Virus record (IMG/VR): IMGVR_UViG_3300045988_183866
DNA from: a virus
Strand: one strand, 5' to 3'
Length of the DNA: 64,000 nt
Part shown: in pieces, positions 50,506-51,669 of the stretch
Layout: every line of letters starts with the position of its first letter
Numbering within the stretch: the stretch's first letter is position 1
Position numbers and translations under genes: made by a program
Notes under the pieces: model-generated
Told to the model about the DNA's origin: nothing
The model's input: only the letters and a program-made list of their open reading frames with translations
Databases searched by the model: none

Positions 50506-51669
50506 ATGAAAAAAAATGCAAAAGAGATTTTGGCAGTCATCAGTGCCGCATGTATTGCATTGACCGCGTGTGGCAAAAACGTGACCGATGCAAGTACATC
50601 TGAGACTGCGGAAACAGCCACCTCCGAAACGGCGACCGCTATTGAGTATGACCTCGGTCTTGATGATGATGGGTATTTTCGCAATGTGACTGCATCCAAG
50701 TACATAAAAATGCCCAAGGATTATAAGGAGTATACGGTCAGCAAAGATGTATACGCCGTTACAGACGAGGAGATTCAAAATGAGTTGGATTATTTTCAGT
50801 CCAATTACAAGCTGACGACAGAGGTAACAGACCGCGCCGCACAGGAAGGCGATGTTGTGAACATTGACTATGAGGGTACGGTTGATGGTGTTGCTTTTAC
50901 CGGTGGAACAACAGAAGACTACGATTTGGAACTCGGTTCCAATACATTTATTGACGGATTTGAAGACCAAATCGTCGGGCATAACACGGGGGATTCGTTT
51001 GACGTCACAGTAACATTCCCTGATGGATATAGCAGTACAACAGATAGAACTACAGGCGAGCAGACTATCGAACTCGCCAACAAGGAAGCTGTTTTCCATG
51101 TAACGCTTAATAAAATTTCTCAATATAGCATGACAGATGCTGATGTTGCCGGTATCATGAGTGGCTACAAGCTGCAAGACGGTACTGCTGTAACCACAGT
51201 AGCTCTGCTTCGTGAATATGTTGAAGAGAATCTTCGGATGAATAAGATTCAGAATGAGATTGAACAGTATTTCATTGACAATGTAAAACTCAAAAAGGAT
51301 ACGACAGACCTTGTCAATCTGAGTCTTGAAACTAACTTGAAGTATGTCGAAAACGAAGCAACTGCCTACAATATGGACTTGGAGACATTCGTTCAGACAT
51401 ACAGCAATTATAAGACCTCGGAGGAGTATTCAGAAAGTCTTCGTAGTCAGACGGAAGAAAATGTTTTACTGAGCCTTGTTGCGCAGTATCTGGCAGAGGA
51501 ACAGGACTATAAACCGTCTGTCGATGAAGTGAAAGCTTATATTGGCAGTAACTACGATAACGCCGTTGATACCTATGGAGCAGGTCCTTTGGCACAGGAG
51601 TGTATGTATAACAAGATTATGGGCAACTACTGCATTGATGTGTACGAGCGGTCTGCCGCAGCTGAGTAA
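50506..51669 (+). CDS. Trigger-factor-like lipoprotein (FKBP-type PPIase domain plus TF C-terminal domain, with a lipoprotein signal replacing the ribosome-binding domain)
   Basis: The RBS aaggag precedes the ATG. [24 protein letters not shown] is a signal II / lipobox. [92 protein letters not shown] closely parallels the trigger-factor PPIase domain (..GDrVtIDFtGsvDGeeFeGGkaedf.L.lGsg.mIpGFEdgi.Ghk.Ge.f.idVtFPe.Y). A TF-like C-terminal helical domain follows. Confidence 0.75.
   Translation: [387 protein letters not shown]

Follow-up and report, generated by a model that had tools for sequence, protein, structure and literature searches.

What would a trigger factor (TF), the textbook ribosome-bound cytosolic chaperone, be doing with a lipoprotein signal peptide? 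This question is raised by a gene at 50506..51669 of the IMG/VR virus record IMGVR_UViG_3300045988_183866, a stretch of 64,000 nucleotides that we refer to as the window (features written as start..end lie on the + strand) and that belongs to a Hodor megaplasmid, as set out below. The gene encodes a TF-like protein of 387 residues and is located between the genes for a plasmid-borne SecYEG translocon and the gene for a class B sortase-like transpeptidase, on the same DNA as two reading frames for giant surface proteins. A first-pass annotation, made from the letters alone, had described TF domains exported as a lipoprotein, with the ribosome-binding N-domain replaced by a type II signal peptide, and had nominated the protein as an extracytoplasmic holdase or foldase for the repeat-rich giants. 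Our analysis supports that reading, since export-type N-termini are conserved among the relatives, the gene is paired with a sortase, and the giants carry sorting signals. We consider it likely that the protein is a TF paralogue that acts not on the ribosome but at the outer surface of the cytoplasmic membrane, as a holdase and prolyl isomerase recruited for giant sortase substrates.

Domain architecture and predicted structure

The protein has both the central FKBP-type peptidyl-prolyl isomerase (PPIase) domain and the C-terminal helical Trigger_C domain of TF, and it lacks the ribosome-binding N-domain, exactly as had been claimed (the FKBP peptide quoted at the time is present). A Pfam scan of the 387 residues yielded only FKBP_C (E 2.6e-16; PPIase domain at residues 109–201, 50830..51108) and Trigger_C (residues 242–345, 21.8 bits, the gathering score being 22.7), the latter within an all-helical chaperone domain that spans residues 210–387 and, with the stop codon, positions 51133..51669. 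The same scan gave no match to Trigger_N at E<=0.01 and no parvulin-type PPIase domain. The NCBIfam model TIGR00115 (tig) aligned residues 71–349 with model positions 108–371 of 410 (172.4 bits, E 1.3e-50), which falls short of its equivalog cutoff of 180.2 because the first ~107 model positions, those of the ribosome-binding domain, are missing. The N-domain signature GFRxGxxP was likewise not found in the protein, as the first-pass annotation had expected, and a phmmer search of PDB sequences returned TFs only (E 2e-20).

In the place of the N-domain is a predicted lipoprotein signal peptide (residues 1–22, 50506..50571), with a positively charged n-region (MKKNAKE), a hydrophobic h-region and the lipobox LTA-C22, which fits the pattern [LVI][ASTVI][GAS]C at ~15–35 residues from the start and bears out the LTAC lipobox that had been pointed out. 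It is followed by a low-complexity tether (residues 23–44, 50572..50637; seven Thr, four Ala, three Ser and three Glu among 22 residues) that is predicted to be disordered, and then by a confidently modelled stretch (50638..50829; pLDDT, the predicted local distance difference test score, >90) made up of a family-specific segment at residues 45–70 (YxxGLDDxGY...DY..xPxDY) and of residues 71–108. The latter are the counterpart of the linker between the N-domain and the PPIase domain of TF, the TIGR00115 alignment beginning at residue 71 (model position 108).

A mis-called start codon concealing an N-domain was considered and ruled out. The secE gene ends at 50447, and the 58-bp gap between it and the ATG of the TF-like gene is filled by a terminator-like hairpin with a T-run (50454..50482; 13-bp stem, 8 G-C pairs) and by a ribosome-binding site read from the sequence (AAAGGAG, 50492..50498), 7 nt before the ATG; inspection of the open reading frame (ORF) revealed no in-frame start codon 5' of the ATG at 50506. 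There is therefore no space for a hidden N-terminal domain.

An AlphaFold2 model built from a 35-sequence alignment (mean pLDDT 86) is confident over residues 45–387 and disordered over residues 1–44 (pLDDT <50), which correspond to the signal peptide and tether. The model comprises an FKBP β-sheet at residues ~104–207 and an all-helical C-domain at residues 211–387, and Foldseek placed E. coli TF at the top of its PDB matches (2vrh, 1w26; E ~1e-11), followed by the TFs of V. cholerae, the chloroplast and T. maritima, the best multi-domain structural matches being TFs. When the protein was aligned with E. coli TF, residues Y122, F131, I149, F152, Y175 and F197 corresponded to the residues of its hydrophobic PPIase pocket, F168, F177, I195, F198, Y221 and F233, which we take to be functionally important in the E. 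coli protein; all six are invariant or nearly so across the family alignment (A1), and the aromatic pocket of the PPIase domain is intact.

Relative to E. coli TF, an insertion of 10 residues (179–188, TTDxxTGExxI) precedes the last FKBP strand. It is conserved across, and specific to, the tethered family described in the next section, with T179, D180 and L190 conserved and with two further residues in the Hodor branch, and it may perhaps form an extended substrate flap. Two cysteines of the mature protein, C366 and C376, were considered as a disulfide that might mark export; this candidate was dropped, as both are located on one predicted helix (359–386) and are unconserved beyond the Hodor clade.

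A family of membrane-tethered TF paralogues

A protein search returned 4,499 matches, the closest few hundred of which are ~380 residues long and combine FKBP_C and Trigger_C with no Trigger_N. Among the closest is a protein encoded on the chromosome of Faecalibacterium prausnitzii and called “trigger factor”, the name under which the window-type protein is also already found at NCBI. Homologues of 34–97% identity all begin with one of two elements, a signal peptide with a lipobox or a transmembrane (TM) anchor of strong hydrophobicity, and the lipobox Cys column is invariant in alignment A1. The gene is under purifying selection (ratio of nonsynonymous to synonymous substitution rates, dN/dS, of 0.12 relative to the 97%-identical copy), and this value, together with the recurrence of the architecture over so wide a range of identity, indicates that the combination of export signal and TF body did not arise by chance.

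Two surveys delimit the family. A phmmer search with residues 45–110 alone against 1.84 billion representatives, a design that underestimates family size, yielded 56 clusters, defined at 50% identity, of consistent architecture; a lipobox is present in 25 of the 29 full-length cluster representatives and a TM or signal anchor in the other four, while GFRxGxxP occurs in none of the 29 and a hydrophobic N-terminus is missing from none. A scan of GTDB species representatives recovered 80 loci, including 50 canonical TFs, all of them 430–520 residues long with GFRxGxxP and no signal peptide, and ~26 N-domain-less, membrane-tethered forms. The latter are from Faecalibacterium, Gemmiger, Subdoligranulum, Cibiobacter, Coprococcus, [Ruminococcus] faecis, Mediterraneibacter, other Lachnospiraceae and a metagenome-assembled genome of the Defluviitaleaceae; a chromosomal homologue reaches at most only ~40% identity to the window protein. 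In a Faecalibacterium-type subgroup (P0063, P0065, P0075, P0078, P0091, P0094 and others) an uncleaved TM helix (mean Kyte-Doolittle hydropathy >3), followed by Lys/Arg, replaces the lipobox, which suggests two modes of tethering for the same chaperone, like PrsA versus PpiD.

These N-termini bear directly on whether the protein might after all be cytosolic, that is, an N-domain-less TF resembling PceT whose hydrophobic N-terminus is not a working export signal. N-domain-less cytosolic TF paralogues do exist (PceT/RdhT), and the public annotation is simply ‘trigger factor’. However, a textbook n-region, h-region and lipobox here run into a Ser/Thr/Glu/Ala-rich linker, relatives that swap the lipobox for a true TM helix keep the hydrophobic segment, and every one of the 29 representatives has such a segment. 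We regard a cytosolic location as very improbable, and the features of the N-terminus indicate that the protein is probably localised outside the membrane.

In a neighbour-joining tree, all the tethered forms constitute a single clade, to which the canonical TFs from these same Clostridia do not belong. Nested within this clade, beside mobile-element-like copies and the Faecalibacterium group, are the window protein and its relatives, and the N-domain was therefore lost before the plasmid gained the gene. Thus, the plasmid took over a member of a pre-existing Clostridial family of tethered TF paralogues and did not invent one. The family is widespread in gut Clostridia and apparently unremarked: in the full-text literature searched we found no prior description of exported or lipoprotein TF paralogues.

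Two further matches belong to the periphery of the family. One (P0079, 665 residues, on a 2.6-kb ENA contig) is a single ORF that fuses a full canonical TF (Trigger_N, FKBP and Trigger_C) to most of a tethered-family TF; this could be a genuine tandem fusion or else an artefact of misassembly or of a frameshift. The other is PHROG family phrog_26774, a phage family of unknown function with 435 profile positions, which matches the TF-like protein over profile positions 116–375 (E 5e-32); TF-like proteins therefore also occur in phage-catalogued sequences.

Linkage to a plasmid translocon, a sortase and giant surface proteins

The gene arrangement around the TF-like gene has a published counterpart. 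The main text of a preprint by Yuan et al. (bioRxiv 22 Feb 2026; PMC12934698) describes “Hodor” conjugative megaplasmids of >300 kb from the human gut, which carry a module in the order hyp-SecY-SecG-SecE-trigger factor-class B sortase beside giant proteins of 7,309–7,704 and ~2,642 residues with signal peptides and sorting signals. According to the same text, the genes for TF and sortase B are transcribed together, SecYGE being a unit of its own, the module is conserved in both Hodor groups, and TF is proposed as a chaperone of the giant proteins (PMC12934698). The window has this gene order, two giants (>6,514 and ~2,647 residues) and a ParM/Alp7A-like gene, thereby agreeing with the description, as given there, on every testable point (gene order, giants, ParM), and it is a Hodor megaplasmid; members of the same cluster are located on contigs that are 296 kb and 353 kb long.

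In the window, the TF-like gene and the class B sortase gene form a two-gene unit directly 3' of plasmid secY-secG-secE, so that the placement between a private translocon and a sortase seen by the first-pass annotation holds. SecY (48589..49929) is of the canonical housekeeping type (TIGR00967 329.8 bits, cutoff 253.6), SecY2 models giving it only ~147 bits. The next gene encodes a SecG-like small membrane protein (49945..50199) with weak matches (PF03840 E 0.0018; TIGR00810 20.4 bits, below cutoff), and the gene at this position is named SecG in the module as published (PMC12934698). SecE (50196..50447) comprises 83 residues from an internal ATG (TIGR00964 30.1 bits, cutoff 27.55), and a matching 83-residue gene is called in the locus of the 97%-identical copy (L001). 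The window ORFs scanned included no SecA gene, and the plasmid translocon therefore presumably relies on the host motor. The sortase gene (51681..52652) begins 11 nt 3' of the TF-like gene and its product matches the class B sortase model TIGR03064 (E 7.2e-22) with 77.9 bits, far under the cutoff of 153.75; it has one TM segment and the sortase motifs with His (FGHSNG), Cys (LSTCS) and Arg (DTRF). Before the TM anchor it has an acidic extension of ~65 residues at the N-terminus, which is long for a sortase. Terminator-like hairpins flank the TF-sortase pair on both sides: a second one is found 3' of the sortase gene (52741..52772), and the hairpin at 50454..50482 sets the TF-srtB unit apart from the secYGE unit, which fits the transcripts reported for Hodors (PMC12934698).

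This arrangement is retained in divergent relatives. The order zf_Tbcl-SecY-SecG-SecE-TF-SrtB is found at 97% (L001), 62% (L090) and 58% (L002/L003) TF identity, with the sortase kept 3' of the TF-like gene in all four loci and with the two genes overlapping by 46 nt in L002. In addition, a TF-like lipoprotein of 48% identity is encoded on a different element with a serine recombinase (L087, 8001–10169; contig logan:ERR14760580_36926), where the gene for a 181-residue sortase follows 460 bp after it with no SecYEG nearby, and this locus represents a second TF-sortase pairing on a different element.

The candidate clients are located in the left part of the window. Giant surface protein 1 (1..19646) exceeds 6,514 residues in a frame that is open to the left window edge; it corresponds to the published Hodor protein of 7,309–7,704 residues (PMC12934698), and ends with NKKTGIGF, a hydrophobic segment and an HKRKK tail (19494..19646). 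Giant protein 2 (20074..28017), with MBG_2 repeats and ~2,647 residues from Met22, has a clear Sec signal peptide (MQKPRKRFLSAIVAVAMCLSQFAPVTAYA) and ends with NYKTGVGF, a hydrophobic segment and a KKKK tail (27850..28017). The two share the terminal motif N(K/Y)KTG(I/V)GF, which is without the proline usual in NPKTG or LPxTG and which no other window ORF has. Together with the hydrophobic segment and the Lys/Arg tail that come after it, this motif constitutes a sortase sorting signal; among substrates of class B sortases, similar motifs to N(K/Y)KTG are NPKTG and (S/P)PxTG.

Does such tight pairing mean that the protein serves the sortase itself? As a sortase accessory factor, it would hold the sorting signal and stalk, or the sortase, so as to present N(K/Y)KTG, and would not take part in bulk folding. 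Co-transcription with srtB (PMC12934698), the gene overlap in L002, the second pairing on another element and the precedent of PceT, a TF-family chaperone that binds the targeting peptide of one client (PMC8905343), are all compatible with such a role, but the chromosomal family members have no sortase partner, and the PPIase pocket and full C-domain are conserved as in general TFs. We therefore consider this explanation improbable.

The preferred reading, a chaperone recruited for the giant sortase substrates, has to be weighed against several observations that count against it. The tblastn searches of all fetched loci with two sortases and the plasmid SecY, SecE and SecG as queries, which are sensitive only to fairly close homologues, found a sortase or SecY homologue within 6 kb at none of ~25 chromosomal loci; the F. 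prausnitzii chromosomal gene (L004), for example, stands by itself, with malic enzyme/fumarase genes on one side and a restriction-modification system on the other. Two copies on other mobile-element-like contigs (P0055, P0057) show no neighbouring sortase. Client specificity rests on gene order, that is, on guilt by association. Moreover, the Trigger_C score of the window protein is slightly below the Pfam gathering threshold, and its lipidation, export, PPIase activity and chaperone activity are predictions from sequence.

Because the chromosomal relatives lack sortase and Sec neighbours and P0055 and P0057 lack a sortase, the default function of the family may be that of a general extracytoplasmic foldase, and the sortase pairing is a trait of the plasmid-borne branch. 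The plasmid protein itself could then also be a general post-translocational foldase, a substitute for PrsA that is carried with SecYEG to boost secretion in any Bacillota host and that serves all plasmid exports, including the conjugation apparatus and other surface proteins. The mostly chromosomal, stand-alone nature of the clade agrees with this explanation, as does a plasmid SecY of the canonical housekeeping type instead of the accessory SecY2; yet the tight TF-sortase B unit is kept in both of the deeply diverged Hodor groups described in the preprint (PMC12934698), and the TF-sortase pair recurs on an unrelated element. This explanation, which differs from the preferred one only in client breadth, is possible in our estimation, though doubtful.

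Proposed mechanism

For the chaperone recruited to the giants we propose the following sequence of events. The TF-like protein would be exported by Sec, lipidated by host Lgt and cleaved by host LspA at Cys22. Its TF body would then be held on a flexible tether of ~22 residues, attached at the end that carries the ribosome-docking domain in canonical TF, and would act as an ATP-independent holdase and prolyl isomerase on polypeptides leaving SecYEG. TF is ATP-independent, and a holdase/isomerase role outside the membrane is proposed because this property suits an ATP-free compartment. The chief clients would be the two giant MBG-repeat proteins (>6,500 and ~2,650 residues), kept soluble and folding-competent until the co-transcribed sortase processes their N(K/Y)KTG signals.

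More speculatively, and with distinctly less confidence, the protein could represent an unrecognised class of TF-derived extracytoplasmic chaperones in gut Clostridia, in which an anchor, either lipid or TM, takes the place of the ribosome-docking domain at the corresponding end of the protein and the chaperone cradle over the Sec exit mirrors that of TF over the ribosomal tunnel. Hodors would combine such a chaperone with their own SecYEG and sortase into a self-sufficient line for 7,000-residue adhesins in any host.

Other features of the window

The gene just 5' of secY (47600–48289) encodes a zf_Tbcl treble-clef zinc-finger protein with two copies of the motif, which is found at 50–93% identity in all Hodor-type loci. 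This protein looks cytosolic and probably corresponds to the ‘hyp’ of the module as published. Two tandem paralogous genes for small membrane proteins (52816–53145 and 53186–53518; 109 and 110 residues, 50% identical, E 4e-40) come immediately after the terminator of the sortase gene; no family match was found for them, and they are conserved in L001.

Elsewhere the window contains genes for a flotillin/SPFH protein (31242–32777), a Dam methylase (34446–34964), the ParM/Alp7A-like actin (38533–39792), a PIN7 nuclease (54962–55645) and a radical SAM protein (60568–61353), and otherwise a long run of genes without a family match. These five fit a large plasmid rather than a phage; Hodors were first spotted within a huge-phage collection. 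A blastn search with the 4.2-kb cassette found nothing among PLSDB plasmids and, among GenBank phages, only a 65-bp chance match.

Significance and comparison with known systems

The list of post-translocational foldases in monoderm bacteria is short and dominated by the parvulin lipoprotein PrsA. If our reading is correct, a TF clade on the outer face of the membrane adds an FKBP/TF-based member to it, and abundant gut commensals, Faecalibacterium among them, have members of this tethered TF family under no other annotation than “trigger factor”. The chaperone of the Hodor module would act after translocation and not before it, which changes the published picture, and its action would explain how proteins of 2,600–7,700 residues stay foldable between a plasmid translocon and a plasmid sortase in varied hosts. 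The TF-like protein may also find use in biotechnology as a secretion helper.

The closest known system is the Hodor ‘trigger factor’ itself, which is the same gene in the same module as the window gene. The Sec-TF-sortase module and the idea of a chaperone for the giants are thus already known from the preprint (PMC12934698). In its main text, the words “lipoprotein” and “FKBP” are absent, the missing N-domain, the lipobox and an extracytoplasmic site are not stated, and no tie is drawn between the plasmid TF gene and a chromosomal family. Within the searchable literature we found no description of the N-domain-less state, of the predicted nature of the protein as an extracytoplasmic lipoprotein or of its membership in a sizeable Clostridial clade of such proteins.

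With canonical Tig, the window protein shares the linker, FKBP and C-domain homology, the domain order and the aromatic pocket; it differs in having no N-domain or GFRxGxxP signature, in its predicted lipoprotein signal and tether, in the 10-residue FKBP insertion, in a sub-cutoff score and in belonging to a separate clade. PceT, which reportedly lacks the ribosome-binding N-domain as well, is a cytosolic protein that binds PceA's Tat signal peptide ahead of export, whereas the window protein has an export signal of its own and would act after Sec. Membership in the RdhT clade is disfavoured because of this export signal, and the window ORFs scanned included no rdh genes. PceT/RdhT is a TF-family chaperone dedicated to reductive dehalogenases and encoded beside its client (PMC8905343), an example from which it follows that TF-family proteins can become dedicated chaperones next to a client.

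The overall arrangement is akin to that of the accessory Sec systems. The window ORFs that were scanned included no gene for SecA2, an Asp protein or a glycosyltransferase. Accessory Sec systems (SecA2/SecY2 and the Asp proteins) place a dedicated translocon and its helpers beside very large, sortase-anchored serine-rich repeat adhesins, and the window likewise pairs a translocon and a helper with giant putative sortase substrates; in contrast to those systems, its SecY is canonical (329.8 bits) and not SecY2 (~147), and its helper is a predicted extracytoplasmic TF paralogue. In function, the nearest analogues of that helper would be PrsA (a Bacillota lipoprotein), PpiD (TM-anchored) and SurA. 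It is well known that the TF C-domain is related in fold to SurA, PrsA and PpiD; the PPIase domains of these three are of the parvulin type and that of the window protein is of the FKBP type, and the window protein, which has no significant sequence similarity to PrsA, is a direct paralogue of TF.

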